From the NCBI GenBank assembly GCA_038087875.1, contig CM075992.1, positions 1,366,001 to 1,430,000 of the forward strand: DNA of 64,000 bases, read 5' to 3'. Of this stretch, positions 29,856 through 55,112 are shown piece by piece. This stretch comes from Malacoraja senta (lineage: Eukaryota). The notes under the pieces are model-generated. The model had not been told where the DNA came from. It was given only the letters and a program-made list of their open reading frames with translations, and did not search any database. How positions within the stretch are numbered: position 1 is the first letter of the stretch; each line of letters starts with the position of its first letter. The position numbers and the translations under genes are program-made.

Positions 29856-30524
29856 CAGTTTAGTTTAGTTTAGAGATACAGCGCGGTAACAGGCCCACAC
29901 GAGTCCGCGCCGACCATCGATCTCCGCACACTAACTCTATCCTACACACACTAGGGACAATTTTACATTTACCCCAAGCCAAATAACAATAAAGGAAACT
30001 TGACTTGACTTGAACCTACAAAACCTGCACGTCTTTGGAGTGTGGGAGGAAACCGAAGATCCTGGAGAAAAGCCACGCAGGTCACGGGGGTAACTACAAA
30101 CTCCGTGGAGATCACCCGTAGTCAGGATCAAACTCAGTCTCTGTCGCTGTAAAACCCCTGTCCCACGGTACGAGTTCATTCCAAGAGCTCTCCCCGAGTT
30201 TTGCCCTGATTCGAACTCGGAGATTTACGGTAATGGCCGCTCGTCGGTACTCGGGGCTCTCGTGGACATTTTTTCAACGTGTTGAAAAATCTTCACGAGT
30301 CTTCCCGAGCTTACCTGCCGTTAGCGAGTCTTCCCGAGTACCTGCCGTTAGCGTTACGAGCCGCTAAGAGACGTCCCCGAGCTCCGACGTACCCGCTACC
30401 TTCATTCTCCGTGCTTACCACCAGTTTGATTTTTTTTTAAACTCGGGAGAGCGCTTGGAATGAACTTGTACCGTGGGACAGGGCTATAAGGCAGCAACTC
30501 TACCGCTGCGCCACCGTGCCGCCC
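29856..30524 (-). mobile_element. V-SINE (HE1-like) containing a Harbinger MITE
   Basis: Tail at 29856, head at 30490-30524. Confidence 0.88.
30153..30486. mobile_element. Harbinger-type MITE (family A)
   Basis: TIRs AACCCCTGTCCCAC and GTGGGACAGGGCTA. TAA TSD at 30150-30152 and 30487-30489. Confidence 0.9.
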
Positions 30525-31194
30525 GGCGGGAGAGCATTCAACTGAAGATCTAAAGGTCCCTGGTTCGATCCCAGGTCCATCCTCGATCCCAAGAACAAAT
30601 ACATGTAAAAAGTGGCTTATTCTTTGCTCAAGGATCCATATCTCTCCTCTGATCTATCGTCCGTGACAACAATCTATTGATTCTGCTACATAACGTGACT
30701 CTGAACCTTGCACCTTTCTTGTCCATGTCCAGTCTTGCACTAGCTGTAGGTTAAACATGTCCCATTCCTTCTCTCCAGAGATGCTGCCTGTCCCGCTGAG
30801 TTACTCCAGCATTCTGTGTCTATCTTTGGTTTAACGTGTCCACTCACAGACTGCCTTCATGTTAAGTTTACATTTCCCTGCCTGTTCCATTAACCAGGGC
30901 TGAAAGTGACAAATACTCTGCATGTGTAGGAAGGAACTCCAGACGCTGGTTTAAACCGAAGGTAGACACAAAATGCTGGAGTAACTCAGCGGGGCAGGCA
31001 GCATCTCTGGAGAGAAGGAATGGGTGACTTCAGAAGAAGGGTCTCGACCCAAAATGTCCCATTCCTTCTACCCAGAGATTCTGCCTGTCCCGCTGAGTTT
31101 TTTGGGTCAATCTTCAATGTTCTCCAGGTATGGCTGGACTGTAAGTGCAGCTTTGACAGCTTCTAGTTAGTCATAGAATCATACTACACATTGC

Positions 31195-31448
31195 AGCACG
31201 GTGGCGCAGTGGTAGAGTTGCTGCCTCACAGCAGCGGAGACCCGGGTTCAATCCTGACTACGGGTGATGTCTGGACTGAGTCTGCATGTTCTCCCTGTGA
31301 CCCGCGTGGGTTTTCTCCAGGTGCTCCGGTTTCCTCCCACACTCCAAAGACGTGCAGGTTTGTAGCTTAATTGGCTTGTGTAAATTGTCTCTAGTGTGCA
31401 GGATAGATTGCTGGTCGGTCTGTTTCCACGCTGTATCTCTAAACTAAA
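31195..31448 (+). mobile_element. V-SINE (HE1-like)
   Basis: Head, V-domain and tail. Confidence 0.85.
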
Positions 31449-31874
31449 TCTGTACGCTGGGCTTAACTAATGCCCAGACCACACCTTGTTGGACTCAGTA
31501 CTGAAGCACAGGAATAAGCTCCATGTCTTTCTACTGCAGAAAGGCAGCTCAGGAGATCGGTGGAGTGGGGTCTGGTCAAAAGAAACATTAAAGACCAAAC
31601 TCTCAGCTTGGAAAGGAAATGATTCATGTAGAATAAATCCAATATTTCATTTCTGTAACAAGCTGAATAATACAAATAGCCTTGTATGTTACTCAATTCC
31701 TGTTCTATTCAAGCAGATAATTACTTATTTAACAAATTATTACCTGATCTGACTTAATTAATTACTCAGATTAAGTTATGCTGAAAGAACTCTTCAAAAA
31801 GAGGCAAAGTTTAAGCTGGTTTCAACTCATTGCTCAGCAAAATAAGTTGGGAACTTTAACTGATAAATCCCATA

Positions 31875-32056
31875 ACACACTCACACACACACACACACAC
31901 AGATTAATTCACACACACACACACAGATTCATTCACACACTCACATGCACACTCACACACTCACAGATTCACTCACGCACTCACACACATTCACACACAC
32001 ACACAGATTCATTCACACACTCAGATTCATTCACACACTCACACTCACACTCACAG

Positions 32057-32139
<83 letters not shown>

Positions 32140-32390
32140 TTCATTCACACACTCACAGATTCATTCACACACACACACAAACACACTCACAGATTCATTC
32201 ACACACTCACACACACACTCTCACACACACATTCACACACTCACACAGATTCACTCACGCACACTTATATATACACACACACAAACACACCATATATATA
32301 ATATATATATATGTATAAACATAAACACACACACATATATATATATATACACACACACACACTCACACACACATATATATATATATATAA

Positions 32391-32437
<47 letters not shown>

Positions 32438-32550
32438 CACACACACATATATATATATATATAAACACACACACACACATATATATATATATACACACAC
32501 ACACACATTCACACACACAGACTCAATCAAACACTCACACACATATATAC
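31875..32550. repeat. Compound (CA)n / (TA)n microsatellite
   Basis: Long pure CA run at ~32060-32137, then alternating CA/TA blocks. Confidence 0.95.
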
Positions 32551-32560
32551 AAATACTCGA

Positions 32561-32922
32561 TGGGCCTGTCCCACTTACGCGACCTTTTCGGCGACTGCCG
32601 GCACCCGTGATAGGTTGCCGAAAATTTTCATCATGTTGAAAATTCAGCGTCAACCAGAAAGACGCTACGACTCTTGACGCTTTGGTTGACCAGGAGACCT
32701 CTCACGACGATACAGGCGACCTCTCACGACCATACAGGTGACCCCTGGCGACCTCTCACGACCATACAGGCGACCCCTGGCGACCTCTCACGGCCATACA
32801 GGCGACCCCCTGGCGATATGCCCCTTGATGACACCCCGCGACATGTCGCCAGGGGTCGCCTGTATGGCCGTGAGAGGTCTCCTGGACAACCAAAGCGTCG
32901 TAGCGTCTTTCTGGTAACCGCT
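32561..32922. mobile_element. Harbinger-type MITE, one end missing, internally palindromic
   Basis: TGGGCCTGTCCCACTTA TIR. Internal inverted arms (CCAGAAAGACGCTACGAC... / ...GTCGTAGCGTCTTTCTGG) and GGCGACC subrepeats. Confidence 0.7.
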
Positions 32923-33804
32923 CTCAACAAAGGCACATACTGTATACACACATACACAGACTCACTCACACACACACACACGTACACAGGTTATATACAC
33001 ACTGCTGCGTACCAGTTTTAATAAATCAACTGTTACTTTGAACTTGGGGTGTCCTTTCCATTTGCTCCTACAAGGGATTTGGGCCAAAAACAGGCAAGTG
33101 GGACTAGTGTCAGTAGGGCATGGGCAAGTTGGGCCGAAGGGCCTGTTTCCATGCTGAATGACTCTGTAACAGCTGAAATGTCTATTCGGGGATATGGGGA
33201 GAAGGCAGGAACTGATTGGGGATGATCAGCCATGATCACATTGAATGGCGGTGCTGGCTCGAAGGGCCAAATGGCCTACTCCTGCACCTATCGTAATCTG
33301 CGATTGATCCTGGTTGGATTCACTGAGCAAATTGTAAGACAAGAATAAACTGGGACAATCACCCTGACAATTTATGCTCAACTAATTTGATCCAATTTCT
33401 TGAGAAATTTCCCCAGTGCCTTGGGAAAGGAAATATCATGGCATTTGATAAGATGCCCCACCAGAGACTTGTTATGAAAATTAAGTCACGCAGATGGAAA
33501 GATAGCTAATGCAAACAGTCGCGGTTTACTGAAATGTTCAAGGAACCTTGCTGTCGGGAAGCCTTTTGCTTCTCGTTTTTGTCCACGGGTTGGTGGAGGC
33601 GCAATAAAGCGGAGAGGTGTGTGTGTGTGTGGGTGCGGGAGGAATGGGGCTGGGAGTGGGCAAAAAGATGGCAGCTGCTGATAGGCGCAGAGGCAACAAA
33701 CTTCAAGTTTCTGGGTACACAATAGACAATAGACGAAAGACAATAGGTGCAGGAGTAGGCCATTCGGCCCTTCGAGCCAGCCTACCTTCGAAGGAACTCG
33801 AAGG

Positions 33805-34245
33805 TAGGAAGGAACTGCAGATACTGGTTTACACCGAAGATAGACACAAAATGCTGGAGTAACTCAGCGGGACAGGCAGCACCTCTGGAGAGAAGGAATG
33901 GGTGACGTTTCAGGTCGAGACCCTTCTTCAGACAGAGACAGGGTGGAGGGAGACAGAGATATGGAAGGGTGAGGTGTAAGATAAGGATAAGAGGCTTTCC
34001 CTCCTTCTCCATCCCTGCCCCATCCTAGTTCTCCGATTAGTCTGACTGTCTCTTCATCCCCTTTGATCTCTCATTGTTACACCTCACCCTTCCATATCTC
34101 TGTCTCCCACTCCCCATCACTCTCAGTCTGAAGAAGGGTCTCCACCCGAAATGTCACCCGTTCCTTCTTTCCAGAAACGCTGCCTGTGCCGCTGAGTTGC
34201 TCCAGCATTTTGTGTCAGACTGAAGAAGTTTGTGTCTATCTTCGA
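33805..34245. mobile_element. Fold-back PLE terminal-repeat pair
   Basis: Cores at 33904-33931 (-) and ~34128-34155 (+, mutated). Confidence 0.75.
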
Positions 34246-35003
34246 GTTTCCGGGCGTGCATATCTCTGAAGATCAGTCCTGGACCCAGCACATTGATGCT
34301 ATCATGAAAAAAAGACCATCAGACAGATGATTGAGGAGATTTGGCATGTTAGACAATAGACAATAGACAATAGGTGCAGGAGTAGGCCATTCGGCCCTTC
34401 GAGCCAGCACCGCCATTCAATGTGATCATGGCTGATCATCCCCAATCAGTACCCCGTTCCTGCCTTCTTCCATTATCCCCTGACTCCGCTATTTTTAAGA
34501 GCCCTATCTTAATGATTAGGGCTCATTTTGTTGATGAATACTCTCTTGTACTTCTACAGGTGTATGGTGGAGAACATATTGACTGGTTGCACTCTAGCCT
34601 GGATCGACAACTCAAACATCCAGGATTGAAGGAGAATACAAAGAGTGGTGGAACACTGCCCGGTCCATCACGGGTACTGACCTCCCCACCATCAAAGGAA
34701 TCTGCAGATGGTGCTGCCTTGAAAAGGTAGCCAGCATGATCAAGGACCCATGCCACCCTGGCCACGCTCTCATTTCACTCCTGCCGTTGGGAAGAAGGTA
34801 CAGGAGCCTGAAAACCATGGACCTCCAGGTTCAGGAATAGCTTCCTCCCATTAACCAGTCTGAAGAAGGGTCTCAACCCGAAACATCACCCATTCCTTCT
34901 CTCCAGAGATGCTGCCTGTCCCGCTGAGTTACTCCAGCATTTTGTGTCTCTCTTTGTCTTAAACCAGCATCTGCAGTTCCTTCCTGGCCCACATTAAGGA
35001 TTT

Positions 35004-35618
35004 GGCATGATAAGCAAAGAGGTCCTTCTGCAGTTGTACAGGGCCCTAGTGAGACCACACCTGGAGTATTGTGTGCAGTTTTGGTCCCCTAATTTGAGGA
35101 AGGACATTCTTGCTATTGAGGGAGTGCAGCGTAGGTTTACAAGGTTTATTCCCGGGATGGCGGGACTGTCATATGCTGAGAGAATGGAGCAGCTGGGCTT
35201 GTACACTCTGCAGTTTAGAAGGATGAGAGGGTATCTCATTGAAACATATAAGATTGTTAATGGTTTGGACACGCTAGAGGCAGGAAACATGTTCCCGATG
35301 TTGGGGGAGTCCAGAACCAGGGGCCACAGTTTAAGAATAAGGGGTAAGCCATTTAGAACGGAGACGAGGAAACACTTTTTCTCACAGAGAGTGGTGAGTC
35401 TGTGGAATTCTCTGCCTCAGGGGGCGGTGGAGGCGGGTTCTCTGGATGCTTTCAAGAGAGAGCTAGATAGGGCTCTTAAAAATAGCGGAGTCAGGGGATA
35501 TGGGGAGAAGGCAGGAACGGGGTACTGATTGGGGATGATCAGCCATGATCACATTGAATGGCGGTGCTGGCTCGAAGGGCTGAATGGCCTACTCCTGCAC
35601 CTATTGTCTATTGTCTAT
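35004..35618 (+). mobile_element. CR1 3' fragment (open frame 35007-35528)
   Basis: LYRALVRPHLEYCVQFWSP...IEGVQRRFTR...GYGEKAGTGY plus (TATTGTC)n tail. Confidence 0.93.
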
Positions 35619-36171
35619 TAACATTTTGTGTCTATCTTCCCAATAAACGTCAGGCTAATGAACTGCAAATGCTAACTAAACATCAAGCTACAATCCCTTG
35701 GTTGCATGTACTTTGGGCATTTCTTTTCTTTTGCTTTGCACTGATATTATTTTTATTTATTGAGCTTTTTTTCTTCTTTTGTTTTATTATGTAATCTATC
35801 GGGTACTTTGTTTACAAACCTGCTCTGCTCTGCAAGTAAGCGCGTAATTGTTCTGTTTCGGTACATAAGGCAACTAACTCTTGACTCTTGAAATCTGAGG
35901 AAAGACATCTTGGGGAAATGAAGACTGTGAAGGGGATGAGATTCTTAAAACTAAAAGTAGAGGAAAGCAAAGGCGATGCATAAAGTGCTAGAGTAGCTCG
36001 GAGGGTCAGGCAGCTTCCGGTGAAAACCCACGCAGGTCACGGGGAGAACGTACAAACTCCGTACAGACAGCAGCCGTAGTCAGGATGGAGCCTGGGTCTC
36101 TGGCGCTGTGAGGCAGCAACTCTACCGCTGCGCCGACGTGCCACCCATGATTTTCTTCAGGTTAAAATCAG

Positions 36172-36690
36172 TGGACATCCTTGTGATTGAGGCAGTGCAG
36201 CGTAGGTTCACGAGATTGATCCCTGGGATGGCGGGATTGTCATATGAGGAAAGATTGAAAAGTCTAGGCTTGTATTCACTGGAGTTTTAGAAGGATGAGG
36301 GGATATCTTATAGAAACATTTAAAATTATAAAAGGACTGGACAAGCTAGATGCAGGAAAAATGTTCCCAATGTTGGGCGAGTCCAGAAACAGGGGCCACA
36401 GTCTTAGAATAAGGGGGAGGTCATTTAAGACTGAGGTGAGAAAAACTTTATCACCCAGAGAGTTGTGAATTGGTGGAATTCCCTGCCACAGAGGGCAGTG
36501 GAGGCCAAGTCACTGGATGGATTTAAGAGAGAGTTAGATAGAGCTCTAGGGGCTAGTGGAGTCAAGAGATATGGGGAGAAGGCAGGCACGGGTTATTGAT
36601 TGGGGACGATCAGCCATGATCACAATGAATGGCGGTGCTGGCTGGAAGGGCCGAATGGCCTCCTCCTGCACCTATTTTCTATGTTTCTAT
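36172..36690 (+). mobile_element. CR1 3' fragment
   Basis: DILVIEAVQRRFTRLIPGMAGLSYEERL...; UTR with TTTCTATG. Confidence 0.88.
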
Positions 36691-36947
36691 GGTACTTGTC
36701 ACCCTAATGCTACTGGTGACAGTCATACGAAGAATGAGAGCTCTACTTGTTAGGTTCACAGAGGTTCGTTGGCGGAGTTCTCTGTGGAAGGTTGTGAGGG
36801 CCTCTTGTGATCTCAGCGCTGTGTCCACTACTGGGGTGCTGTGCTTTCATTCTCGCACGGCGGGGATGTTCTTTGGAATAACGGCGAGGAAGATGAAGGT
36901 TGAATCTGCTGGAGATTTGCCAATTACTGAGAAAAACAAAACAAAAA

Positions 36948-37385
36948 CAGCACTGGGCTTGCACTCGCTGGAGCTCAGAAGGATGAGGGGGGGGACCTCA
37001 TTGAAGCTGACGGAATAGCGAAAGACCTGGATAGAGTGGACGTGGAGAGGATGCTTCCGCTAGTGGGAGAGTCTAAGACTAGAGGGCACAGTCTCAGAAT
37101 TAAAGGATGTACCTGTAGAAAGGAGATGAGGAGGAATTTCTAGATGAGGAAGAATTTCTATCCGGAGGGTGGTGAATCTGTGAAGTTCATTGCCACAGAA
37201 GGCTGTGGAGGACAAATCTTTTAAAGTAGAGATTGATAGATTCTTGATTAGTACGGGTGTCAGGGATTGTGGGGACAAGGCAGGAGAATGGGGTTGGGTG
37301 GGAGAGATACATCAGCCATGATTGAATGGCAGAGTGGAGTCGATGGGCCGAATGGCCTAATTCTGCTGCTATCACTCATGGACTT
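36948..37385 (+). mobile_element. CR1 3' fragment (older subfamily)
   Basis: ALGLHSLELRRMRG...; UTR GATGGGCCGAATGGCCTAATTCTG. Confidence 0.8.
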
Positions 37386-37627
37386 ATGGAAAAGTTTCAG
37401 ATGTTGAAAATACTGCAACACTCGGGCGGTCATGCAGCAGATGTGGAGAGAGAACCAGAGTGGATGTTTGATGAAGAATCCTTGACCCGAACCATTAAAT
37501 CTACTTTCCATTCCGCAGATGCGAACGGATGTGGTGAGTGTTTCCGGCATTTCCCAGTTATATTTGAAATTATTGAATGGCTGTTAAAATATAGGTCGAT
37601 GAGGCAATGAGAAGGGGACAAGGACTG

Positions 37628-37935
37628 CACGCATGGTGGCGCAGCGGTAGAGTTGCTGCCTCACAGCGCCAGAGACCCGGGTTCAATCCTGACTACGGGT
37701 GCTGTCTGTGTGGAGTTTGCACATTCTCTCCATGCCCTGCGTGGGTTTTCTCCGTGTGCTCCTGCTTCCTCCCACACTCCAAAGACATGCAGGTTTGTAG
37801 GTTAATTGGCTTTGGTAAAGATTGTAAATTGTCCCTAGTGTGTGTAGGATTGTTCCAAGTGTATAGGGATCGCTGGGTCAATGTGGACTTGCTGGGCCTG
37901 TTTCCACACTGTATCTATAAACTGAACTAAACTAA
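37628..37935 (+). mobile_element. V-SINE (HE1-like), full length
   Basis: Head, V-domain and (CTAAA)n tail. Confidence 0.88.
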
Positions 37936-38283
37936 ATATGCGTGCTCGGAGTAGGCTGTGCATTCTGCAAAACCTCCAGCCCTGTCTGCGGAGTTCAAAA
38001 CTGCAGCATTTCTGCTGAGCTGCCTGCAACCATGCATTATTGCCCTGCTATGTGTGGAGTTCAAAACTGCAGCATTTCTGCTGAGCTGCCTGCAACCATG
38101 CATTATTGCCCTGCTATGTGCAGATCTTGCAACTTGCAACTGCCGCGATGGCTTTGTCTGCATAGTTCCAAATCGCTGCATTGGTGCTGAGCTCATACTT
38201 GTTGCATTATTGCCAGAACATGCAACTTCTGCATTAATGACAATATCACAACTGAGTCTAGACTTGCAACTGCAGCATTGGAA

Positions 38284-38574
38284 ACGGCCTGTCCCACTTA
38301 CCCGAGTTACTCACGAATTCTCCCGAGTTTTCCCCTCGATTCAAACTCGGAGAATGTCCGTAGGAGTCCGTAGATATATCGTGGCGGCTGGTAATGCCAG
38401 CCGTAGGTACTCGGGGCATTCAGGTAAGTCGGGACGTTTTTTCAGCATGCTCAAACAAAAGTCCACGAGTAAAAAATATTGCCCCGAGTACCTACGGGTT
38501 TGAATCTCCGAGTTTGAATCAAGGGGAAAACTCGGGAGAATTCGTGAGTAACTCAGGAAAGTGGAACAGGCCCT
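38284..38574. mobile_element. Harbinger-type MITE
   Basis: ACGGCCTGTCCCACTT and AAGTGGAACAGGCCCT termini with long sub-terminal inverted arms (GAGTTACTCACGAATTCTCCCGAGTTTTCCCC). Confidence 0.8.
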
Positions 38575-40034
38575 TTACTAAGCCAAGTCAATCCTGACCT
38601 GGGGTGCTGTCTATGTGGAGTTTGCACGTTCTCCCTGTGACCGCGTGGGTTTCCTCCAGGTGCTCTGGTTTCTGCCAACATCTCAAAGACGTGTGTCGGT
38701 TGTCTAGGAAGAAACTGCAGATGCTGGTTTACACCGTAGATAGACTCAAAATGCTGGAACAGCAGGTCAGGCAGGATCTCTGTTCCTCCTCTCCAGAGTT
38801 GCTGCCTGACCCGCTGAGTTACTCCAGCATCTTGCGTCTATCATCGGGTTTGCAGGTTAATCGGTCCTCTGTGAGCTGCCCCCAGTGTGTAGGGAGTGGA
38901 TGCAGAAGTGGGAAAAGATAGAACTAGTGTGAATGGGTGATCGATGGTCCATGTGGACTTGGCCGGGCTGAAGAACCCGTTTCCACGCAGTATCTCCAAA
39001 CTAAACCAGCAATAAACAGAGAAAGAGAGATGGGAAGGAATATGTCACAGGAACTTTTGCAATGGACATGGGGAATTGGAAAATTGTGACTCAGATAGTT
39101 TTGCCAATTAGGTTTGATGCTTTGTTGGCGTTTTTTATCACATTATGTGTTGGAAGGAACTGCAGATGCTGGTTTAAACCGAAGACAGACACAAAAAGCT
39201 GGAGTAACTCAGCGGAACAGGCAGCATCTCTGGAGAAAAGGAATGGGTGACGTTTCTTCAGATTGAGAGTCAGGGAAAAGGGGAACAAGAGATATTGACG
39301 GTACACAGGACAAATGAATGGTAAAGATAGACTCTTCGTCGCGACCCGAAACGCCACCCATTCCTTCTCTCCAGAGACGCTGCCTGTCCCGCTGAGTTAC
39401 TCCAGCATTTTGTGTCTATCTTTGGTGTAAACCAGCATCTGCAGTTCCCTCCCACACACAATGATCACACGGCCTGCAGTCAGATTTCCCCGTCTACCTT
39501 CCCACCCTTGGTCTCCCAAACACATGAATCTTCACTGCAAAGTGCCCTTCCCCTGCCAATGGAAAGTAGTCACAACTAACTGGATGGCTGGTAGCCAAAA
39601 GTCTCCTCCAAACCCTGCCACATTTATAATGAGGGGGGGGGGGAAATCATTCCAACTAAAATTGTTTTTGGAATTTTTGTTTTACTGCTGAAGGATTTTT
39701 CTCCCTGGTACGACCTCCTCCGACCAGTGTCCTCAGGACAAGCCTCTAATTTCTGGAGTGTCTACACCAGTTGTGGAGATATTGGCAGCACTAGACCAGC
39801 TTGTGTTGTGAGCAGCCAATCTGGGTCTAATTGGTCTCTTGTGTGGACAGTTCGTGTTCAGACACTCTCCAGTCTGCTCTCTCGGGCGAATCCAAGATCA
39901 TCGATCAATATAATCACACTGTTTCCTTGCACGCGACTCTGGTCTCCAATCAGCCAGCTTGCTTCCTGACCAGCTCCCGAACCTAGCCTCCGCCCACTTC
40001 TGCAAATTCGCAATGGCACTCTCACCCAAAGACG

Positions 40035-40362
40035 TAGAAACATAGAACAATAAAAAATACAGGTGCAGGAGTAGGCCATTTGGCCATTCAATGTGATCAT
40101 GGCTGATCATCCCCAATCAGTACCCCGTTCCTGCCTTCTCCCCATATCCCCTGACTCCGCTATTTTTAAAAGCCCTATCTAGCTCTCTCTTGAAAGCATC
40201 CTGAGAACCTGCCTGAGGCAGAGAATTCCACAGACTCACCACTCTCTGTGTGAGAAAAAGTGTTTCCTCGTCTCCGTTCTAAATGGCTTACTCCTTATTC
40301 TTAAACTGTGTGGCCCCTGGTTCTGGACTCGCCCAACATCAGGAACATGTTTCCTGCCTCTC
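40035..40362 (-). mobile_element. CR1 3' fragment
   Basis: Reverse-complement CR1 C-terminus and UTR. Confidence 0.85.
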
Positions 40363-42992: not shown

Positions 42993-43349
42993 GGGTGTGG
43001 GTGGGCTGGCTATTCCTGGCTGGAGTGATGCCCCACGATACTATTCCAGCACAAACAGCATTGGTTTTTGAAAGACACAAAAAGCTGAGTCTGTGACACC
43101 TCCATAGAACAACTGCGATATCATCTGCCGCCTAAAAATAGAACCTCCTACCAACCAGCAAATTCCCAAGACTCATTCACAATCTGCAGCGTGAAATATA
43201 ATTGCTGGTTGCCGAGTTTTATCAATGCATTGGCGTCCCAGTGAGAGGTGGGGTGTGAGTATATGTAGCTGCGATCCTGGGAAATTTAGTTGGGGGAAGC
43301 GAAAGCAAGGAAGAAGAAGAATCCATCCACCAGCAATCTCCCCGTACAT

Positions 43350-43610
43350 TAGATTAGAGACACAGCGTGGAAACAGGCCCTTCGGCCCTCCGAGTCCGTG
43401 ACGGCCGGCAATCACCCCGAACACTAACGCTATCCTACACACAATAGGGACAACTTACAATTTTACCCAAGCCAGTTAGCCTACAAACCTCCACGTCTTT
43501 GGAGTGTGGGAGGAACCGGAGCTCCCGGATGAAACCCACGCGGGTCACGGGGAGAACGTACAAACTCCGCACAGACAGCGCCCGTAGTCGGGATCGAACC
43601 CGGATCTCTG
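43350..43610 (-). mobile_element. V-SINE (HE1-like)
   Basis: Reverse-complement SINE. Confidence 0.85.
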
Positions 43611-43829
43611 CCGCTACCTTGCATCTGGGATTAATCCTGACATCATCCACTATGTGTTTGCAGGTTCTCCTTGTGAATGCACAGGTTCCACCCCACCCCC
43701 CCCCCTCCCCCGCCCCCAAAATGACTACAAAACACAGGAGCAGAATTAGGCCATTCAGCCCATCGAGACCACTGCACCATTCATTGATGGCTGATCTATT
43801 TTTCCCTCACAACCCCATTCTCCTGTCTA

Positions 43830-44115: not shown

Positions 44116-45046
44116 CGACCTGGAGTTACTCCAGCGCTTTGTGTCCTCATCGAAGATTGATGAGAATGACCCGGTGACTAACAAATATATGATGCTCTGC
44201 AGACGTGTTGCTTGCATTCCCTCGAGCCCAGGCGATTAGAGTGTGACCTAAATGTGTAAGATGATTAAAATAGGTGTAAGGTAGACGAAGAGGAAACACT
44301 CTCCTTGGTTTACAGACGTCTAGGGGCCCTACAACGTAATGGAGTTAATTAGAGCAAGTTCACACAAGGTCTGTCACAGACGGATATCTTTGTGCCAGGC
44401 ACAAAAACCAAGAAGTGGTGGGAACACTCGGCAGGTCAGCAGCACCTGCGGAGAGAGAAGCTGCGATACCTGTCCAGGTGAAGACCCCCCAACCAGATCT
44501 CATCCTTCTGATGAAAGGGGCCTTTCATCTGAAACTCTGGTACTTCTTCCACCTGCTTTAGTCTTCCCTATTTATTTTGGCTTCCAAACATCTGCTGTGT
44601 TTATTCTATTGATTTTCACATTTTCCCAGAATTAGGCCATTCGGCCCATCTATTCTACTCCACCATTCACTCATGGCTGATCCAATATCTCCCTCTCAAC
44701 CCCATTCTCCTGCCTTCTCCCCATAACTCCTGACACCCGTATTTTGCTGCTATCATTTGAGGTTGTTGTGGGTAAGGGGCAGGGGTGTTGGTCTGTGGGA
44801 GATTCTGTAACTAAGATAACTATTTGTGGTGCAAACACAGCAGGACTTGTAAAACAGCGGAGAGTTGTAATACTGCCTGACCTGTTGGGCCGAATGTCAT
44901 TGATGTACGGAAACAGGCCCTTTGGCCCGACTCATCCATGCTGGCCAAGATGCTGCATCTAAGCCAGTCTCATTGGCCCATATTTGCCCCAATATCCCTT
45001 CATATGGAATATAATTGCTATACACAACTTCAAGACACCCCAGGCT

Positions 45047-45340
45047 TGCACGGTGGCGCAGCGGTAGAGTTGCTGCCTCACCGCACCAGAGACCCGGGTT
45101 CGATCCCGACTACGGGTGCTGTCTGTACGGAGTCTGTACGTTCTCCCCGTGACCTGCGTGGGGTTTTTCCGAGATCTTCGGTTACCTCCCACACTCCAAA
45201 GACGTACAGGTTTGTAGGTTAATTGGCTTGGTATAAGCGTAAATTGTCCCCTAGTGTGTGTAGGATAGTGTTAGTTTGCGGGGATCGTTGGTCGACCCGG
45301 ACTCGGTGGGTCGAAGAGGCTGTTTCCGCGCTGCATCTCG
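45047..45340 (+). mobile_element. V-SINE (HE1-like), full length
   Basis: Head, V-domain and tail. Confidence 0.88.
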
Positions 45341-46224
45341 AACAGGGTCTGGACCAGAAATGTCAGCCATTCCTTCTCTCCAGAGACGCTGCCCGTCCCG
45401 CTGAGTTACTCCATCTTTTGGTGTCTATCTTCAGTTTAAACCAGCATCTGCAGTTCCTTCCTAAGCTAAACATACAGGGCCCTCCATAATGTTTGGGACA
45501 AAGACCCATCATTTATTTATTTGCCTCTTGTACTCCACAATTTGAGTTTCTACGCTGTATCTCGACACTAAACTAAACTCACATCCCCCTCCCCCCCTCC
45601 TATGGAGCAGCCCAGGGTTCCACCATCAGCCTCACCAGAGTCACAGGGCACAGAAACAGGCCCTTGGAAATAAGGCAGTGGCTGATTATACAGTGAGCTC
45701 AGCAGAGGAGGAAGCAAACATTGAAGAGGAGACAGACACAAAATGCTGGAGTAACTCAGTGGGACAGGCAGCATCTGTGGAGAGAAGGGATGAGTGACGT
45801 TTCGGGTCGAGACCCTTCGTCAGACTGAGAGTCAGGGGAGAGGGAGACACAGAGATATGGACAATGAAAGAAAGATTTAATAGGAGTCTAAAGGGTAACC
45901 TTTTCACACCAAAGGTGGTGGGTGTATGGAACGAGCTGCCAGAGGAGGTAGTTGAGGCAGGGACTATCGCAATGTTTAAGAAACAGTTAGACAGGTACAT
46001 GGATAGGACATGTTTGGAGGAGTGTGGACTTCGCCCTGCACGAAATCTTCGCACACCACCGGCCTGTCGCGTAACTGACGGCCAAAGTGGGACAGGCCCA
46101 AGACCCTGGGGCGACGCAACGTCTCACCTGCAACAGCAGCAGAAGCAGGCAAACTCGGCCTGGGGCTCACGGCCGTTGGGGATCCGGATCCGCCCCCCAC
46201 TCCTACTCCCAGAGCGGGGCCAAG

Positions 46225-46875
46225 TCTCTCTACAAGGGAGTCCTCCCCCTTTACATTGGGGACCTGGGGTGGAGAGTTTTGCACAAAGCCGTGGCCTGTA
46301 ATAGGTACTTGAGCCGGTTCACGGACTCTTCCCCTGCGTGTCATTTCTGCGGTGAGGAAGAGACCGTGTTCCACGTGTATATAGAGTGCGAGAGGTTGCA
46401 GCCCCTGTTCGAGTATCTGAAAGGGCTGCTCCTCAAGTTTTGGCTACATTTTAGTCCAACGCTATTAATCTATGGGCACCCGGTACAGAGGGGGGAGGGT
46501 CGGGAGGGAGGAGGGGGTCTCCCTGTCGGACTGCTCCTGGGCCTGGCCAAGATGGCCATTCGCGGGTCCAGGCAGTGGGCGGTCGATGGCCGCACAGCGG
46601 TCGGCTGCCTGCCCCTTTTCCGGGGTTACGTCCGTGCCCGCGTGTCCCTAGAGAGGGAACACGCGGTGTCCACGGGGACTGTGGAGGCCTTCTGTGAACG
46701 CTGGTCACCGCAGGAGGTTGAATATATTATAGATTAAAATGTTAATATTTTAATTTGATAATTTTGTTTAAGTGTTTTTTAAATGGTGTGAGCTTTCTTA
46801 CCCTCCCTTGTAAATTGTACATTTGTTTAAAAATCTAATAAAAAAAACATTTACGGGAAAAAGAAAAAAAAAAAA
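46225..46875 (+). mobile_element. Tx1/L1-clade LINE 3' end with poly(A) and TSD
   Basis: DLGWRVLH...CHFCGEEETVFHVYIEC (zf-RVT CCHC), AT-rich UTR and A-tail. 14-bp TSD AGAGCGGGGCCAAG at 46211-46224 and 46876-46889. Confidence 0.9.
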
Positions 46876-47576
46876 AGAGCGGGGCCAAGACGATTGGAGA
46901 CAGACACAATAAGCTGGAGTAACTCAGCGGGACAGGCAGCATCTCTGGTGAGAAGCAATGGGTGACGTTTCTTTAGACTGAAGAAGAATCTCGACCCAAA
47001 ACATCACCCATTCCTTCTCTCCAGAGATGCTGCCCGTCCCGCTGAGTTACTCCTGCATTTTGTGTCTATCTTCAAATGACGTCACGCGCTCCAGACGGCT
47101 GTGCGGACGCATGATGACGCGCGTCAGTCACGACCGGCCTGTTGCGTAAATGACAGCCCAAGTGGGACAGGCCCTTAAGGTGGGTGAATGTCTGGGACTG
47201 ATCGAAAATCTCTTCTGCAAATGCGATTCGGAAGTAACCAGCTGCGGTGTTCAGGATCGGCCAGTGTGGAACTGATCCATGCAGGATTAAGGAGCACAGC
47301 TTAATCCGAAGCAGAATGCCACAGACACTGAGTCGGTGCCTGGGAACGTAATCTCCAGATATTAAAGATTGGATTTCCGCGCTCCAACCCCGTGGGGTGC
47401 GTGCAGTCTTTGCAACGGCCCAGTCAAAACTCCACCAGTAGCAAACAAAATGTGTGGGAAGGAACTGCAGACGCTGGTTTACACCGAAGATAGACACAAA
47501 ATGCTGGAGTAACTCAGCGGGACAGGCAGCATCTGTGGAGAGAAGCGATGGGGGTGATGTTCGGGTCGGGTCTGGT

Positions 47577-47604
47577 CTGAAGAAGGGTCTCGACCCGAAA
47601 CGTC
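47577..47604 (+). ncRNA. Minimal hammerhead ribozyme motif (consensus copy)
   Basis: CTGAAGAAGGGTCTCGACCCGAAACGTC. Confidence 0.7.
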
Positions 47605-47631
47605 ACCCATTCCTTCTCTCCAGGGACTACA

Positions 47632-48166
47632 AAATAGAGAGAGTACAGAGGAGATTTACTAGAATGTTGCCTGGGTTTCAGCAACTAAGTTACAGAGAAA
47701 GGTTGAACAAGTTAGGGCTTTATTCTTTGGAGCGCAGAAGGTTAAGAGGGGACTTGATAGAGGTCTTTAAAATTATGAGCGTGTTAGACAGAGTGGACGT
47801 GGAAAAGCTTTTCCCATTGAGAGTAGGGAAGATTCAAACAAGGGGACATGACTTGAGAATTAAGGGACAGAAGTTTAGGGGGAACATTAGGGGGAACTTC
47901 TTTACTCAGAGAGTGGTAGCTGTGTGGAATGAGCTTCCAGTGGAAGTGGTGGAGGCAGGTTTGATGTTATCCTTTAAAAATAGATTGGATGGGTATATGG
48001 ACGGGAAAGGAATGGAGGGTTATGGTCTGAGTGCAGGTAGATGGGACTAGGGGGAAGTATTTATTTTTAATTAAAAAAAAAAAATTAAAAAAATGTTCGG
48101 CATGGACTTGAAGGGCCGAGATGGCCTGTTTCCGTGCTGTTATGGTTATATGGTTATATGGTTATA
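47632..48166 (+). mobile_element. CR1 3' fragment inserted in a PLE terminal repeat
   Basis: IERVQRRFTRMLPG...GYGLSAGRWD plus (TATGGTTA)n tail. PLE sequence resumes at ~48167. Confidence 0.9.
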
Positions 48167-48403
48167 TGCCTGTCCCGCTGAGTGTCTTTCCACCAGTTAC
48201 AAGACAGGCAACAACCAGCGGGCACTGACCCACAGCTACAGATAAAAAAACCAGGAATTATTGCTGCTCCTAATATTTACGACCTCTGCAGGGAACTGTT
48301 GAGTGGAGTTTGTCACCTCAGGTGTCTAACATGCGCAAGATTAAAGGGCACACTTTAGGATAAGGAGCAGCGGTTTGGAGCGGATCCAAGGAAGATTTTT
48401 AGC

Positions 48404-48710
48404 TTAGTTTAGTTTAGAGATACAGCCCGGAAACAGGCCCTTCGGCCCACCGGGTCCGTGTCAACCAGTGATCTCCGCACACTAACACTATCCTACACAC
48501 ACTAGGGACAATTTACATTTACACCAAGCCAATTAACCTACAAATCTGCACATCTTTGGAGTGTGGGAGGGAACCGGAGCGCCCGGAGAAAACCCACGCA
48601 GGTCACGGGGAGAAGGTACAAACTCCGTACAGACAGCACCCGTAGTCGGGATCGAACCCGGGACTCTGGCGCTGAAAGGCAGCAACTCTACCGCTGCGCC
48701 ACCATGCCGC
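48404..48710 (-). mobile_element. V-SINE (HE1-like), full length
   Basis: Reverse-complement SINE. Confidence 0.88.
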
Positions 48711-48952
48711 CCATTTTTTTCCCACGCAGAGAGTGATTGGAATCTGGGTGGGATAGTAGAGACACTCGCAACATTTAGAATCCATCTTGGTGAATATTTG
48801 ATTCACTAAAGCTAAGCATATGGACCAAGTGTTGTTACCTGGAGTATTGTGTGCAGTTTTGGTCCCCTAATTTGAGGAAGGACATTCTTGCTATTGAGGG
48901 AGTGCAGCGTAGGTTTACAAGGTTAATTCCTGGGATGGCGGGACTGTCATAT

Positions 48953-49152
48953 NNNNNNNNNNNNNNNNNNNNNNNNNNNNNNNNNNNNNNNNNNNNNNNN
49001 NNNNNNNNNNNNNNNNNNNNNNNNNNNNNNNNNNNNNNNNNNNNNNNNNNNNNNNNNNNNNNNNNNNNNNNNNNNNNNNNNNNNNNNNNNNNNNNNNNNN
49101 NNNNNNNNNNNNNNNNNNNNNNNNNNNNNNNNNNNNNNNNNNNNNNNNNNNN
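48953..49152. other. Assembly gap (200 N)
   Basis: Run of N. Confidence 1.
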
Positions 49153-50246
49153 GTGAACCTCCGCCCCAGTCTTAAGTCTTTTGCAGACTCTAACAGGTTT
49201 TCTTCCAAGATTGCCCTGTATTTGGCTCCATCCATCTTCCCATCAACTCTGACCAGCTTCCCTGTCCCTGCTGAAGAAAAGCATCCCACAGCATGATGCT
49301 GCCACCACCATGTTTCACAGTGGGGATGGTGTGTTCAGGGTGATGTGCAGTGTTAGGTTTCCGCCACACATAGCGTTTTGCATTTAGGCTAAAAACTTCA
49401 ATTTTGGTCTCATCTGACCAGAGCACCTTCCTCCACATGTTTGCTGTGTCCCCCACATGGCTTGTGACAAACTGCAAACGGGACTTCTTATGGCTTTTTT
49501 TCAACAATGGCTTTCTTCTTGCCACTCTTCCATAAAGGCCCGATTTGTGGAGTGCACGACTAATAGTTGTCCTGTGGACAGATTCTCCCACCTGAGCTGT
49601 GGATCTCTGCTGCTCCTCCAGAGTTACCATGGGCCTTTTGGCTGCTTCTCTGATCAATGCTCTCCTTGCCCAGCCTGTCAGTTTAGGTGGACGGCCATGT
49701 CTTGGTAGGATTGCAGTTGTGCCATACTCTTTCCATTTTCGGATGATGGATTGAACAGTGCTCCGTGAGATGTTCAAAGCTTGGGATATTTGTTTATAAC
49801 TTAACCCTGCTTTAAACTTCTCCACAACTTTATCCCTGACCTGTCTGGTGTGTTCCTTGGGCTTCATGATGCTGTTTGTTCACTAATGTTCTCTAACAAA
49901 CCTCTGAGGCCTTCACAGAACAGCTGTATTTATACTGAGATTAGATTACACACAAGTGGACTCTATTTACTAATTAGGTGACTTCTGAAGGCAATTGGTT
50001 GCACTGGATTTTATTTAGGGGTATCAGAGTAAAGGGGGCTGAATACTTTTGCACGCGACACTTTTCCGTTTTTTATTTGTAAAAAAATTTGAAAACCATG
50101 TATCATTTTCCTTCCACTTCACAATTATGCGCCACTTTGTGTTGGTCTATCACATAAAATCCCAATAAAATACATTTACGTTTGTGGTTGTAACGTGACA
50201 AAATGTGGAAAAGTTCAAGGGGTATGAATACCTTTGCAAGCCACTG
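49153..50246 (-). mobile_element. Tc1/mariner (Passport/PPTN-like, IR/DR type) transposon, 5' part; transposase frameshifted
   Basis: ORF 49867-49190 MKPKEHTRQVRDKVVEKFKAG...GRPPKL...ARRKPLL...WSDETK...KHGGGSIMLW, with a frameshift near 49285 into GCFSSAGTG. TIR CAGTGGCTTGCAAAGGTATTCATACCCC, TA at 50247-50248, inner DR at ~50032-50053. Confidence 0.93.
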
Positions 50247-50248
50247 TA

Positions 50249-50731
50249 GAAACATAGAAACATAGAAACATAGAAACATAGAAAATAGGTGCAGGAGGAG
50301 GCCATTCGGCCCTTCAAGCCAGCACTGCCATTCATTGTGATCATGGCTGATCGTCCCCTATCAATAACCCGTGCCTGCCTTCTCCCCATATCCCTTGACT
50401 CCACTAGCCCCTAGGGCTCTATCTAACTCTCTCTTAAATCCATCCAGTGACTTGGCCTCCACTGCCCTCTGTGGCAGGGAATTCCACAAATTCACAACTC
50501 TCTGGGTGAAAACGTTTTTTCTCACCTCAGCCTTAAATGACCTCCCCTTTATTCTAAGTCTGTGGCCCCTGGTTCTGGACTCGCCCCACATTGGGAACAT
50601 TTTTTCTGCATCTAGCTTGTCCAGTCCTTTTATAATTATATATGTTTCTATAAGATCCCCCCTCATCCTTCTAAACTCCAGTGAATTCATGCCTAGTCTT
50701 TTCAATCTTTCCTCATATGACAGTCCCGCCA
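50249..50731 (-). mobile_element. CR1 3' fragment; Tc1 inserted at its (TTTCTATG)n tail
   Basis: ORF 50361-50732 AGLSYEERLKRLG...GYGEKAGTGY. Confidence 0.9.
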
Positions 50732-51355
50732 CCTGAGAGTCCCAGCCTCAACTACCTCCTCCAGCAGCTGGTTCCATACACCTACCACCCTTTGTGTGAA
50801 AAAGTTGGCCCTCAGATTCTTATTCAATCTTTCCCCCCCTCACCTTAAACCTCGGCCCTCTGATCCTCGATTCCCCTACTCTGGGCAAGAGACTCTGTGC
50901 ATCTGCCCGATCTATTCCTCTCATAATTTTATACACCTCTATAAGATCACCCCTCATCGTCCTGCACTCAAAACGTGTTCAACCTCTCTCTGTAGCTCAG
51001 GCCCTCGAGACCTGGCGACATCCTCGTAAAAGGTGGTGGAAGCTGATACGATAGTGGTGTATAAAAGGTTTAGTTTAATAAGTTTAGTTTAGTTTATTGT
51101 CACGTGTACCAAGGTACAGTTAAAGCTTTTGTTGTGTGCTAGCCAGTCAGTGGAAATAGATTTTTAGATAGGCACATGGATATGCAGGGAATGGAGGGAT
51201 ATGGGTCACGTGCAGGCAGGTAAGAATAGTTTATCCTGGCATTATGTTCGGCACAGGCCTTGTGGTCCTAAAGAGCTTGTTCCTCTGATGTATTGTTCTA
51301 TGTTCCAGTTGGAAAGTTTGGGTTAGCGGGGACAGGGTCTATTGAAGTTCATTTG

Positions 51356-51805
51356 AGGGTGGCATGGTGGTGCAGCGGTAGAGTTGCTGCCTCAAGGGCC
51401 CTGTCCCACTTTCACCACCTAATTCATGACCTCTGCCGAGTTTGCCCTTGACTCATACTCTCAGCATGGCCGTCGCGAGGTCGTAGCGAGCCGTGATGCT
51501 AGTCGTAGGTACTCGTGGCTTCAAGTGGGTCGGGGCGTTTTTCTCAACATGATGAAAAATGTCCACGAGTAAAAAAGGTCGTGAATTAGGTCGTGAAAGT
51601 GGGACAGGCCCTTCACAACGCCAGAAACCCGGGTTCGATCTTGACTACGGGTGCTGTCTGTACCTTCTCCCTGTGACAACGCGGGTTTTCACCGGGTGCT
51701 CCGGTTTTCTCCCACACTCCAACGCTGTTCAGGTTTGTAGGTTAATTGGCTTCTGTATAATCACCACTTGTGTGTAGGGTAGAACTAGTGTGAATGGGTG
51801 ACCTC
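51356..51805 (+). mobile_element. V-SINE containing a Harbinger MITE
   Basis: Head split at GCC|TCA|CAAC. Confidence 0.85.
51395..51612. mobile_element. Harbinger-type MITE (family B)
   Basis: TIRs AGGGCCCTGTCCCACTTTCAC and GTGAAAGTGGGACAGGCCCT. TCA TSD at 51392-51394 and 51613-51615. Confidence 0.88.
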
Positions 51806-51845
51806 TGGTAGAAATTTAAATCAATCAATCAGTTTTATTCGTCAT

Positions 51846-52440
51846 ATAGATACATAGATACATAGAAAATAGGTGCAGGAGTAGGCCATTCGGCCCTTCG
51901 AGCCTGCACCGCCATTCAATATGATCATGGCTGATCATCCAACTCAGTATCCTGTACCTGCCTTCTCTCCATACCCCCGATCCCTTTAGCCACAAGGGCC
52001 ACATCTAACTCCCTCTTAAATATAGCCAATGAACTGGCCTCAACTACCCTCTGTGGCAGAGAGTTCCACAGATTCACCACTCTCTGTGTGAAAAAGTTTT
52101 TCCTCATCTCGGTCTTAAAGGATTTCCCTCTTATCCTTAAGCTGTGACCCCTTTGTCCTGGACTTCCCCAACATCGGGAACAATCTTCCTGCATCTAGCC
52201 TGTCCAACCCCATAAGAATTTTGTACGTTTCTATAAGATTCCCCCTCAATCTCCTAAATTCTAGCGAGTATAAGCCAAGTCTATCCAGTCTTTCTTCATA
52301 TGAAAGTCCTGACATCCCAGGAATCAGTCTGGTGAACCTTCTCTGCACTCCCTCTGTGGCTATAATGTCCTTCCTCAGATTTGGAGACCAAAACTGTACG
52401 CAATACTCCAGGTGTGGTCTCACCAAGACCCTGTACAACT
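51846..52440 (-). mobile_element. CR1 3' fragment
   Basis: QLYRVLVRPHLEYCVQFWSP...; UTR. Confidence 0.9.
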
Positions 52441-53345
52441 GCTTGCACATAAAGTGCAAGTGCAATGAATTTGCCAGCAGCGGTACAATGAAAAAGGAAC
52501 ACACAAAAACACGATAAAAACTTTTTAACACAAACGTCCACCACAGCATTCATCCCTGTGGTGGAAGGCACAACATTTGGCCAGTCCTCCTCCATTTCCC
52601 CCGTGGTCGGGACCTCAACCCTCCGCGGGCGTCCAGATGAGTGGACAAGGTAAAATTCCAGGTAAGTCCTGAATCCGTGCCTCCCCTACCGAAAACTCTC
52701 TGCTCCCAATATCAATAGATGCCAAGAAAATAGTTCATTTTCAATCCAACAATAATAGATTTTAATTGAATAGGCATTTTCAGCCATGGAGCTAAAGGTA
52801 ATAGATTAGCCATGATATTGTAGACTGGACTGGTCAATGTTTTCTGCATTGACATTATCCCCTGTAAGAACATGCCCATCATACATGTATTTAATTAACT
52901 TCACCTCTCCCCTTCCCCCTCGTGTTCGCACAAAGCCTTGACTCTGCGACGCTGGTCTGAAGAGCTATCTAGTTTCCAATTTTTAATAAAAGGGCCAAAG
53001 TGCTGGAGTAACACAGTAGGTCATGCAGCATGGCTGGAGAACATGGACAGGTGACGCTTTGGGTCGCCCACCTTCCCCAGACTGATGGTGGGGGAGGAGA
53101 CGATGAAAGCTGGGAGAGAACAAAAGCTAGCAAGTGCTAGCCAGGAGCAGCAAATTGTAGGTACAGCACCTCACAGTTCACTTGCACAGCTTACAACCCA
53201 GCGCTGGGAATGTTGATTTCTCTAATTTCACATAACCCCTGCATTCTCTGTCTCTCTCTTGCCCTCTCTCTGTCCCTCCACCACCCTAGACATCCTTCTA
53301 GTTTCACTGTTCACATCCCTTCATTATCAATTCTTCCACAGCGGT

Positions 53346-53373
53346 CTGAAGAAGGGTCTCGACCCGAAACGTC
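53346..53373 (+). ncRNA. Minimal hammerhead ribozyme motif (consensus copy)
   Basis: CTGAAGAAGGGTCTCGACCCGAAACGTC. Confidence 0.7.
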
Positions 53374-53779
53374 ACCTATTCCTTTGCTCCAGAGATGCTG
53401 CCTCACCCGCTGAGTTTCTCCAGCAATTTTGTCTACCTTCCACAGCCAACAATGGACCATTGTGGGTTCCACCTTTCCTTGGTCATCGATGCCAGCTCTG
53501 ATTTGTTCATACATCTACTTTCCCTCCTCCCTCACTCAGTCGACCCAATACGTCACCCATTCCTTCTCTCCAGAGATGCTGCCTGTCCCGCTGAGGTACT
53601 CCAGTATTTATTGTGTTCATCTTAAGTGATGGGTGGATACAGGTGAGGGACATATATACGGGTAGGGGGTTGATAGGCAGGTGGGTGGACAAAGGCCAAC
53701 TACTTTCCACGTTGGTCACCGCGAGTGGTGGGATGGGGAAGGAACGATGCAGATCTCTGCAGCCAGAGTTGTTGCCTTA

Positions 53780-54167
53780 AGCCCCTGTCCCACTTAGGAG
53801 ACTTAAGCAGCAACCTCTGGTGACCTTGCCCGCCACCCAAGGTCGCCACGAGGACACCGGAGGTTTTGGTCACTCTCCCCAATGGTCGAAAGTGGTTTCC
53901 GCGCGGTCGAGGCTTCATCTCGGTTGCTGCTAATTTTTCATCGTGATTAAAACCGGCCTCGTCTAAAAATAGGTCGCCGTTTTAAAGATCGATCATTTTT
54001 TAGTCGCAGGTCTATTCGAAGCCTGTTTTCTTCATAGTGGAAGGTTTTCAACGTGTGCCTGGGAGGTGGTAGGAGGTTGCAGGTCACCTCCACCTTGATT
54101 TATTTTTTGGGTGGCGGGCAAGGTGACCAGAGGTTGCTCTTTAGGTCTCCTAAGTGGGACAGGGGCT
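53780..54167. mobile_element. Harbinger-type MITE (family D)
   Basis: TIRs AGCCCCTGTCCCACTTAGGAGAC and GTCTCCTAAGTGGGACAGGGGCT. TTA TSD at 53777-53779 and 54168-54170. Confidence 0.9.
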
Positions 54168-55112
54168 TTACACCGAGCCAGAGACTCGTAGTCAGGATCG
54201 AACCCGGGTCTCTGGCGCTGCGAGGCAGCAACTCTGCCGAGTGACACTGAAGTTACAGCTCATGTGAAGACTGGAGGAGTGAGCTCATTTATAGTAAGAG
54301 AGATTGCAAATCAGTGTATTATGGCAATGAGATGACTCAATTAAAAATGTTCCTGTATCTAAATTGAGAATTTAAATAGCATTCTCAAAGGCATTATTTA
54401 AATATGAAAACATAGGCACTGCTTGCAGCAATGGTATCTGACGGCACAGTGTGTTAGTGACTCTGGTTATATGTCAGTACTTACTGAAGCCATGCAGGAT
54501 AATTTGCAGAAAGCAATGGCTTCTCAAATCCCTATTAGTCATGGCCACTCAGCCATTAATTCTGCTCAGCTAAATATATTGGTGAATAAATAGTTTAAAG
54601 GGCCAGTCACGGCTTTTACTTAAACGCCCAGGAGATTATTGGGGGGAAATATGAGAGAGTGATTCACCGCGTGGTGGAGGCGGAAATCAGAAAAGGTCAG
54701 GGTGGGGAAGTGGGGTGGATTGGAGGGGTTTAGACAGAGCAGGGTGAAGTGGGGGTGGTAGGTGCGGGCGTGTATCAGACTGGGTCACCGAGAGGTGGGG
54801 GAGGGGTGGGGGGGTACATCAGACAGGGTCACAGAGTGAGATGAGGGGGTGTATTAGAGTGAGTGACAGTGAGAATGTGGGGTATATCAGAGAGTTGACA
54901 AAAATGCTGGAGAAACTCAGCGGGACAGGCAGCATCTGTGGAGCAAAGGAATGGGTGACGTTTGGGGTCGAGACCCTTCTTCAGACTTCAGGCTCCATAG
55001 ATGCTGCCTCACCCGCTGAGTTTCTCCAGCATTTTTGTCTACCTTCGATTTTTCCAGCATCTGCAGTTCCTTCTTAAACGGTGTATCAGAGAGTGTCACA
55101 GTGGAACAAAGG

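Follow-up and report, generated by a model that had tools for sequence, protein, structure and literature searches.

Three PIF/Harbinger-like miniature elements at one trinucleotide of a V-SINE head suggest a non-exclusive insertion hot spot

Few DNA transposons are strict in their choice of target, and the literature lists Dada, Pokey and some CryptonV elements as examples. According to those parts of the cited papers on which we draw throughout, the target preference of PIF/Harbinger elements extends to 9 bp for those of plants and to 15 bp for those of vertebrates (PMC2836001); zebrafish Harbinger3_DR has the palindromic target consensus AAAACACCWGGTCTTT (PMC3016246), and NuwaII, of the PHIS superfamily, inserts at C-TNA-G with a TNA target-site duplication (TSD) and terminal inverted repeats (TIRs) starting GG (PMC4482050). 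Dada transposons target tRNA, snRNA and 5S genes, with a putative 6-bp TSD at tRNA sites (PMC8869645, PMC3706591). Here, we describe three non-coding TIR elements—judged from their sequence, likely PIF/Harbinger MITEs (miniature transposable elements with inverted repeats) of one related clade—that occupy the identical TYA trinucleotide in the tRNA-derived head of a V-SINE (SINE, short interspersed nuclear element). All of them lie in a single 64-kb window, meaning the whole stretch analysed (assembly GCA_038087875.1, contig CM075992.1, positions 1,366,001 to 1,430,000). Every count below comes from this one window, beyond whose reach genome-wide targeting lies.

The three elements (M30, M51 and M53; Table 1) represent both orientations relative to the SINE. 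The host of M30 is on the minus strand, with the MITE opposite to the SINE orientation, and its TAA duplication reads TTA on the SINE strand; on that strand, the TSD follows the variant of the host at each site (TTA for M30, TCA for M51, TTA for M53). A pattern composed of SINE left flank, TYA and TIR matched exactly three times in the window and never in 100 shuffles. When the 12-nt flanks on either side were compared with an empty SINE copy, 12+11 positions agreed for M30, 12+10 for M51 and 11+7 for M53, the last of which reads AGAGTTGTTGCC[TTA]CACCGAGCCAGAG and has a 2-nt insertion after the TSD in addition to substitutions. An earlier note on this DNA had reported the coordinates of the three MITEs, their lengths of 334, 218 and 388 bp, their TSDs and their common position, all of which we recovered from the sequence. 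Its statement that the interiors differ holds in that these are three distinct elements, but not all of them are unrelated: M30 and M51 have in common a short internal motif of ~30 nt (84–87% identity by BLAST). For the interior of M53, BLAST within the window returned no match apart from its own TIRs.

The host repeat has the makeup of a V-SINE: a head derived from a tRNA, in which A and B boxes occur, and after it a conserved V domain. Its majority sequence in the window agrees by eye, over the head and the central domain, with the Ac1 consensus given in the PMC6887750 supplement, and GCCTCACAGC at the target is part of this agreement; in the portion of PMC4824008 used here, HE1 is listed as a V-SINE of sharks and rays, and Ac1 and DANA are V-SINEs as well. 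We aligned 26 copies or fragments from the window, 22 of which span the target and four of which do not. By resemblance, the host may be HE1-like and the DNA that of a shark or ray; no HE1 sequence turned up in the paper supplements searched. Among the spanning copies, the target trinucleotide is TCA in 13, TTA in five, TCG in two, CTA in one and TTT in one; TNA is present in 18 copies, three of which are filled, and the unfilled ones hold a single trinucleotide (TCA in 12, TTA in three). TTA was not significantly more frequent at filled sites than at the others (2/3 versus 3/19, P = 0.12). The description of the host as the most abundant SINE stands among tRNA-headed repeats of the window (26 aligned), but a repeat resembling the tail of a long interspersed nuclear element (LINE) has a position class of 57. 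Likewise, the placement of the site between the A and B boxes is right for the hosts of M30 and M51, which carry both boxes, but not for that of M53, which has no A box. This third host is one arm of a fold-back whose two SINE heads are truncated at the same point, and the MITE is present only in the TNA-bearing arm; M53 would thus have inserted after the fold-back had formed.

While the earlier note gave these insertions without a denominator, motif and profile scans revealed ten elements in the window with the same TIR, of the form AG(G/C)(G/C)CCTGTCCCAC. They yield nine countable junctions, three at the SINE site, one ambiguous (M38) and five elsewhere; M46 was not counted, since the sequence adjoining its outer side is similar to the interior of M27. 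M38 is followed on its right by TTA and then a V-SINE body that matches poorly over its initial 10 nt, a part shortened by ~9 nt, and has a non-SINE left flank and no TSD. Interiors of M14, M18, M30, M38 and M51 are similar in parts (66–93%), and M53 has only the TIR start in common with them. That M14 is 93% identical to M30 and sits in unrelated flanks argues that the M30 family moves as DNA and is not exclusive to the SINE. Three paralogous empty LINE-tail sites corresponding to M27 each carry a single trinucleotide (GTA, TTA, GTA). M18 lies in the middle of an inverted repeat rich in AT (arms 18628–18752 and 18940–19064); the arms measure 125 nt, and the ~70 nt of them that extend beyond the TIR are AT-rich. 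Taken as a whole, the insertions are bimodal in their distribution, with one hot spot and, besides it, sites unrelated to it.

Table 1 Elements with the common TIR, host SINE copies and target site (positions within the window).
Feature	Position	Strand	Description
MITE M14	14081..14402		M30 family, 93% identity over 330 nt; flanks not SINE; TSD pair TAA/TTA
MITE M18	18698..18994		related to M14/M30, 80-88% in parts; TSD pair TTA/TGA
MITE M27, 171 bp	26947..27117		within LINE 3' fragment; TSD pair TTA/TGA
V-SINE copy S30	29854..30525	-	near full-length; hosts M30, which separates A box from B box; ~10% from window majority sequence
MITE M30, 334 bp	30153..30486		TIR ~46 bp, arms match at 43/46; TSD TAA/TAA at 30150-30152 and 30487-30489
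M32, left end of same-TIR element	32561..32950	+	adjoins (AC)n/(AT)n array; no TIR found on right, limit there approximate
Target trinucleotide TCA, empty SINE copy S37	37661..37663	+	between A and B boxes; overlaps anticodon loop in very relaxed ARAGORN fold
MITE M38	38284..38574		TIR 64/68; ambiguous fourth case
M46, one TIR end	46040..46102	-	outer neighbour like M27 interior; limits approximate
M47, one end of same-TIR element	47105..47175	-	outer flank CACCCACC-TTA, non-SINE; inner limit approximate
V-SINE copy S51	51356..51800	+	hosts M51; A and B boxes present; ~10% from majority sequence
MITE M51, 218 bp	51395..51612		TIR ~38 bp, arms match at 35/38; TSD TCA/TCA
SINE-head fragment, ~36 bp	53765..54187	+	hosts M53; 5'-truncated, no A box; left arm of fold-back
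MITE M53, 388 bp	53780..54167		TIR ~61 bp, arms match at 57/61; TSD TTA/TTA
Fold-back mirror arm, truncated SINE head	54184..54239	-	TCG (not TNA) at site; no MITE

For an estimate of chance, the elements were removed, self-BLAST served to sort the 3,895 TNA sites into homologous classes, and random insertions were drawn. The target represents 18 of about 3,900–4,050 TNA sites in the window (~0.5%) and received three of the nine countable junctions. With the site fixed beforehand (18 copies), the probability of at least three hits in nine is 8e-6; for any repeat-position class, chosen post hoc, it lies between 6e-4 (dispersed classes only) and 8e-3 (all classes, over-merged), and with ten junctions at 9e-4 and 1.1e-2, respectively. 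Four hits, with M38 counted, would have a post hoc probability of 1e-5 to 4e-4. Comparison with the other TNA sites of the SINE, which the earlier note had proposed as a check, came out in the same direction at window scale: the SINE has nine consensus TNA positions with 127 site copies in total, all three insertions fell at the position with 18 copies (P = 0.003 for a fixed and 0.016 for any position, calculated by hand), and the other eight positions (109 site copies) contained no such element in the window. The claim that this lineage targets the SINE site thus stands in so far as the clustering exceeds within-window chance, but fails as exclusive targeting, with five of nine junctions elsewhere and one ambiguous.

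The reading we prefer, at a probability of roughly 0.55, is local sequence recognition by a PIF/Harbinger-type machine for which the TYA of the SINE head is a hot spot and a non-exclusive target. [quoted passage not shown] Its transposase would favour the local DNA at the SINE-head TYA, and the SINE would offer such sequence at intervals of about 3.5 kb (18 sites with a TNA in 64 kb). The promoter need not be intact, it seems, given that the third site has no A box.

Several results weigh against such sequence recognition. Besides the junctions elsewhere, which speak against exclusivity, the off-SINE sites do not resemble the SINE site: of 24 flank bases, six agree at M14, four at M18 and seven at M27 (null mean 7.3), and of the 12 bases of the half-sites, three agree at M47 and two at M32. 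Were one rigid consensus at work, some trace of it should show at these places, and there is none. Accordingly, no extended consensus common to all insertions emerged, the five non-SINE sites being at chance level in a small sample in which only likeness to the SINE site was scored; the extended target preference invoked by the earlier note is reported for Harbingers in the literature, but a common extended consensus of the Harbinger3_DR type finds no support here. Furthermore, no autonomous partner or transposase was found in the window, where five of the 19 open frames of at least 150 aa, scanned against Pfam, gave Tc1 or LINE domains or nothing. If the third site is discounted, two hits in nine have a post hoc probability of 0.047–0.15, and the signal therefore depends on accepting that site. 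Finally, the P values ignore that the window was chosen for looking striking.

This last point leads to the rival that the MITEs land on any TNA and that common SINE heads will yield three hits in some window. The scan covers very many windows, just two cases lie in intact SINEs, and five of nine junctions are elsewhere without a common motif; we nevertheless consider chance unlikely, as three hits remain improbable even post hoc, four hits with M38 more so, and the eight other TNA positions of the SINE are empty of such elements. Alternatively, rare chance insertions may have been multiplied later, by retroposition of SINE+MITE chimeras or their gene conversion into empty SINE copies. Each of the three could be one member of a small chimeric family, and the tree of the hosts (23 of the 26 rows, with three rows of <100 nt left out) is an unresolved star, 17 of its 20 inner branches open, that firmly excludes nothing. 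However, with three different elements in three hosts, at least three primary insertions are needed anyway, and no chimera recurs in the window. Clades of SINE+MITE chimeras, which the earlier note had named as one outcome that would refute it, did not appear in this weakly resolved tree: S30, S51 and S38 formed one group in 0% of 200 bootstrap trees. The host SINEs have no special set of changes in common, and neither S30 nor S51 belongs to the copies with which the other has most changes in common. Read on the sense strand of the SINE, M30 and M51 contain one T5 run each and M53 contains seven runs of T4–T6, such that a run of five or more T is present in every one of them; T runs stop transcription by RNA polymerase III (Pol III). 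Secondary amplification is thus disfavoured, and we rank it as the least probable of the alternatives. The three insertions are likely independent events, as the earlier note had proposed—they involve different elements, have perfect TSDs that follow the host variant, are matched by empty copies with a single trinucleotide, and include one element with a sibling, M14, in unrelated flanks.

A further rival is that the site is chosen via structure or host proteins, be it an anticodon-loop hairpin or tethering to TFIIIC/Pol III on SINE heads. It would accommodate the lack of a common consensus at off-SINE sites and the position of M18 at the centre of a long inverted repeat. The target also coincides with the 5' side of the anticodon loop when the SINE head is folded with ARAGORN, though such folds appear only at a very relaxed threshold and with varying labels, and at default settings the program called no tRNA gene in the window. 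Tethering through a full Pol III promoter fits poorly with the third host and its missing A box. As to structure, the DNA of empty SINE heads folds no better than shuffles (z = -0.47, -0.08 and -0.07), and the stems around the target sites comprise 2–4 bp, with 4 bp reached by 14% of all TNA sites. An Rfam scan returned only hairpin-type matches below gathering scores. Recognition of this kind appears quite unlikely to us.

Turning to the TSDs, those of the three SINE-site elements are perfect, whereas the pairs of the complete off-SINE elements M14, M18 and M27 differ, and do so only in the middle base (Table 1). At least three mismatched pairs in six would arise by decay with P = 0.006 at 7% and P = 0.026 at 12%. 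For mPing, staggered TSD cleavage with 5' overhangs has been proposed (PMC4561436). An element arriving with a donor-derived overhang would give one of its TSD copies the middle base of the donor, which would explain all three off-SINE pairs; TGA corresponds to the TCA of the SINE site in flipped orientation. We infer this from three cases and offer it as a lead only; the M18 pair may instead stem from its fold-back. A bolder version would let a vertebrate clade of Harbinger-like transposons evolve true targeting of the TYA that lies in the anticodon loop of the V-SINE head—a safe haven for a DNA transposon on a SINE, in parallel to Dada on tRNA genes—and move with a donor-derived 3-nt overhang, such that elements leaving a SINE (TCA/TGA) would mark one TSD copy of their new site with the donor's middle base; we regard it as doubtful. 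For the match between element and SINE site, one window does not discriminate between accident and the adaptive safe-harbour use that the earlier note put forward; the loss of Pol III transcription that it held probable is a conjecture for the first two sites and cannot apply to the third, whose host has no A box.

How, then, does the locus compare with described systems? The Harbinger label is suggested by the form of the TIRs and the 3-bp TNA TSD. The TIRs agree with those given for PHIS elements in the part of PMC4482050 used here (mostly <60 bp, first base usually A or G); most ends begin AG, with one end each of M30 and M14 starting with T. The 3-bp TSDs are matched by paralogous empty sites, SINE and LINE-tail copies alike, that hold one trinucleotide. 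The TWA duplication of strict PIF/Harbinger elements is seen at M30 and M53; M51 has TCA on both sides, and M18 and M27 have TGA on one. Tolerance for C or G at the middle TSD position is described for mPing (PMC4561436). As with Harbinger3_DR, rice mPing and maize PIF, we are dealing with short non-coding TIR elements with a 3-bp TSD and a putative preference beyond it; unlike in those systems as cited, the TSDs have the form TNA, with TCA among them, the preferred site is non-palindromic and lies in a SINE head, and off-site insertions lack a common consensus. With NuwaII, the elements share the 3-bp TNA TSD and, at M47 as well as at the SINE site, a C in front of it, but the SINE site is C-TYA-C and TIRs mostly begin AG. 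Membership in NuwaII was considered and rejected: none of the six complete elements has both the C and the G around the TSD, and the ends start AG.

What recalls Dada is that a DNA transposon occupies one set position in a tRNA-type sequence of many copies; the anticodon arm is the target of some Dada lineages, and recognition is proposed to be by primary sequence (PMC8869645, PMC3706591, as far as the cited parts go). Dada belongs to another superfamily, however, and targets real RNA genes, whereas the elements here are non-exclusive. Their 3-bp TSDs, long TIRs and five of nine junctions off the site led us to reject Dada membership. The words "SINE" and "Harbinger" do not occur in the main texts of PMC8869645 and PMC3706591. 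Use of another multicopy repeat as a preferred site also recalls Pokey, in 28S rRNA genes, and Tx1L, Tx1-Mar and SINEU (PMC8869645, PMC4494074); in the passages cited, Pokey is a piggyBac element in rDNA, and Tx1L, Tx1-Mar and SINEU are retroelements that enter DNA transposons, the reverse of a DNA transposon in a SINE. MER6 is the reverse chimera, a V-SINE inside a Mariner MITE. Nothing in the open literature searched (Repbase, Dfam and subscription papers not included) describes a Harbinger-type element with a preference for a SINE head, and the TIR motif was absent from the paper supplements searched.

The SINE–TIR junction pattern had no match in a viral contig collection and none in a genome contig collection. 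A search of sequencing runs listed 21, of which 20 contain part of a 7.7-kb stretch with word shares of 0.41–0.61, values to which we attach no evidential weight. The looser TNA+TIR pattern occurred at at least 117 metagenome loci (26 of 64 parts scanned; ~300 expected in all) and four viral ones, which we rejected as chance: none of these 121 loci matches the window beyond 21–29 nt, and two have a partner-like end, without TSD and at 71% GC. Similarly rejected were hits of a translated M14 frame against called open frames across MITE junctions, of which one search gave none and another a tandem-repeat protein (E = 3.6e-4).

Further observations concern the SINE copies. S30 is itself inserted in a tRNA-Phe(GAA)-like sequence (29838–29856 and 30528–30584); with S30 removed in silico, ARAGORN calls a tRNA-Phe at a relaxed threshold, making this a nest of tRNA pseudogene, SINE and MITE. 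The SINE tail (e.g., in the copy at 48395–48715, minus strand) contains GAAGGGCCTGTTTCC, which resembles the TIR starts AGGGCCTGTCCCAC and AGGGCCTGTTCCAC, lies ~235 bp downstream of the hot spot and may be a cryptic binding site or a chance likeness. Three minus-strand copies have lesions at or near the target: a deletion spans it in S59 (59600–59715), its left flank is replaced in S10 (10083–10262), and S43 (43349–43640) begins just past it. These could be break scars or ordinary decay. Another copy (19545–20312) is split in its body, at a different position, by ~450 bp of LINE-like 3' fragments (19643–20093).

Elsewhere in the window, tight fold-back pairs are found at 9410–9585, 23265–23466 and 62039–62202, with arms of 62–97 nt that are 95–96% complementary and 8–52 nt apart; together with 53765–54239, they suggest that fold-backs are common in this DNA. 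A second kind of element (~390 bp, ~12788 to ~13180), which has no relation to the clade described here, has inverted ends AAAGATCCTATAGC...GCTATAGGATCTTT and an internal palindrome. An open frame of 229 aa (49190–49879, minus strand) encodes transposase domains of the Tc1/Sleeping Beauty type and is no partner for TNA MITEs. LINE reverse-transcriptase frames (RVT_1, zf-RVT) lie at 55297–56874 (minus), 7308–8162 (plus) and 46075–46737 (plus), the longest having 525 aa. Tandem arrays occupy 3119–3790 (38-bp unit, 18 times), 31875–32543 ((AC)n-rich, 670 bp) and 60918–61425 (40-bp unit, 13 times, made of 5- and 10-bp subunits).

In the part of PMC9179366 cited here, no Harbinger was found in the elephant shark and other cartilaginous fishes were suggested for checking; if this DNA is that of a shark or ray, its Harbinger-like MITEs bear on that question. 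The same head sequence is present in bony-fish V-SINEs, going by the supplement of PMC6887750, so the idea of a SINE-head hot spot can be tested in existing assemblies. Were it to hold genome-wide, one parasite would use another as its landing pad, the promoter would be split in a sizeable share of SINE copies (three of 18 TNA-bearing heads here), and a natural site-preferring transposase would be on offer.

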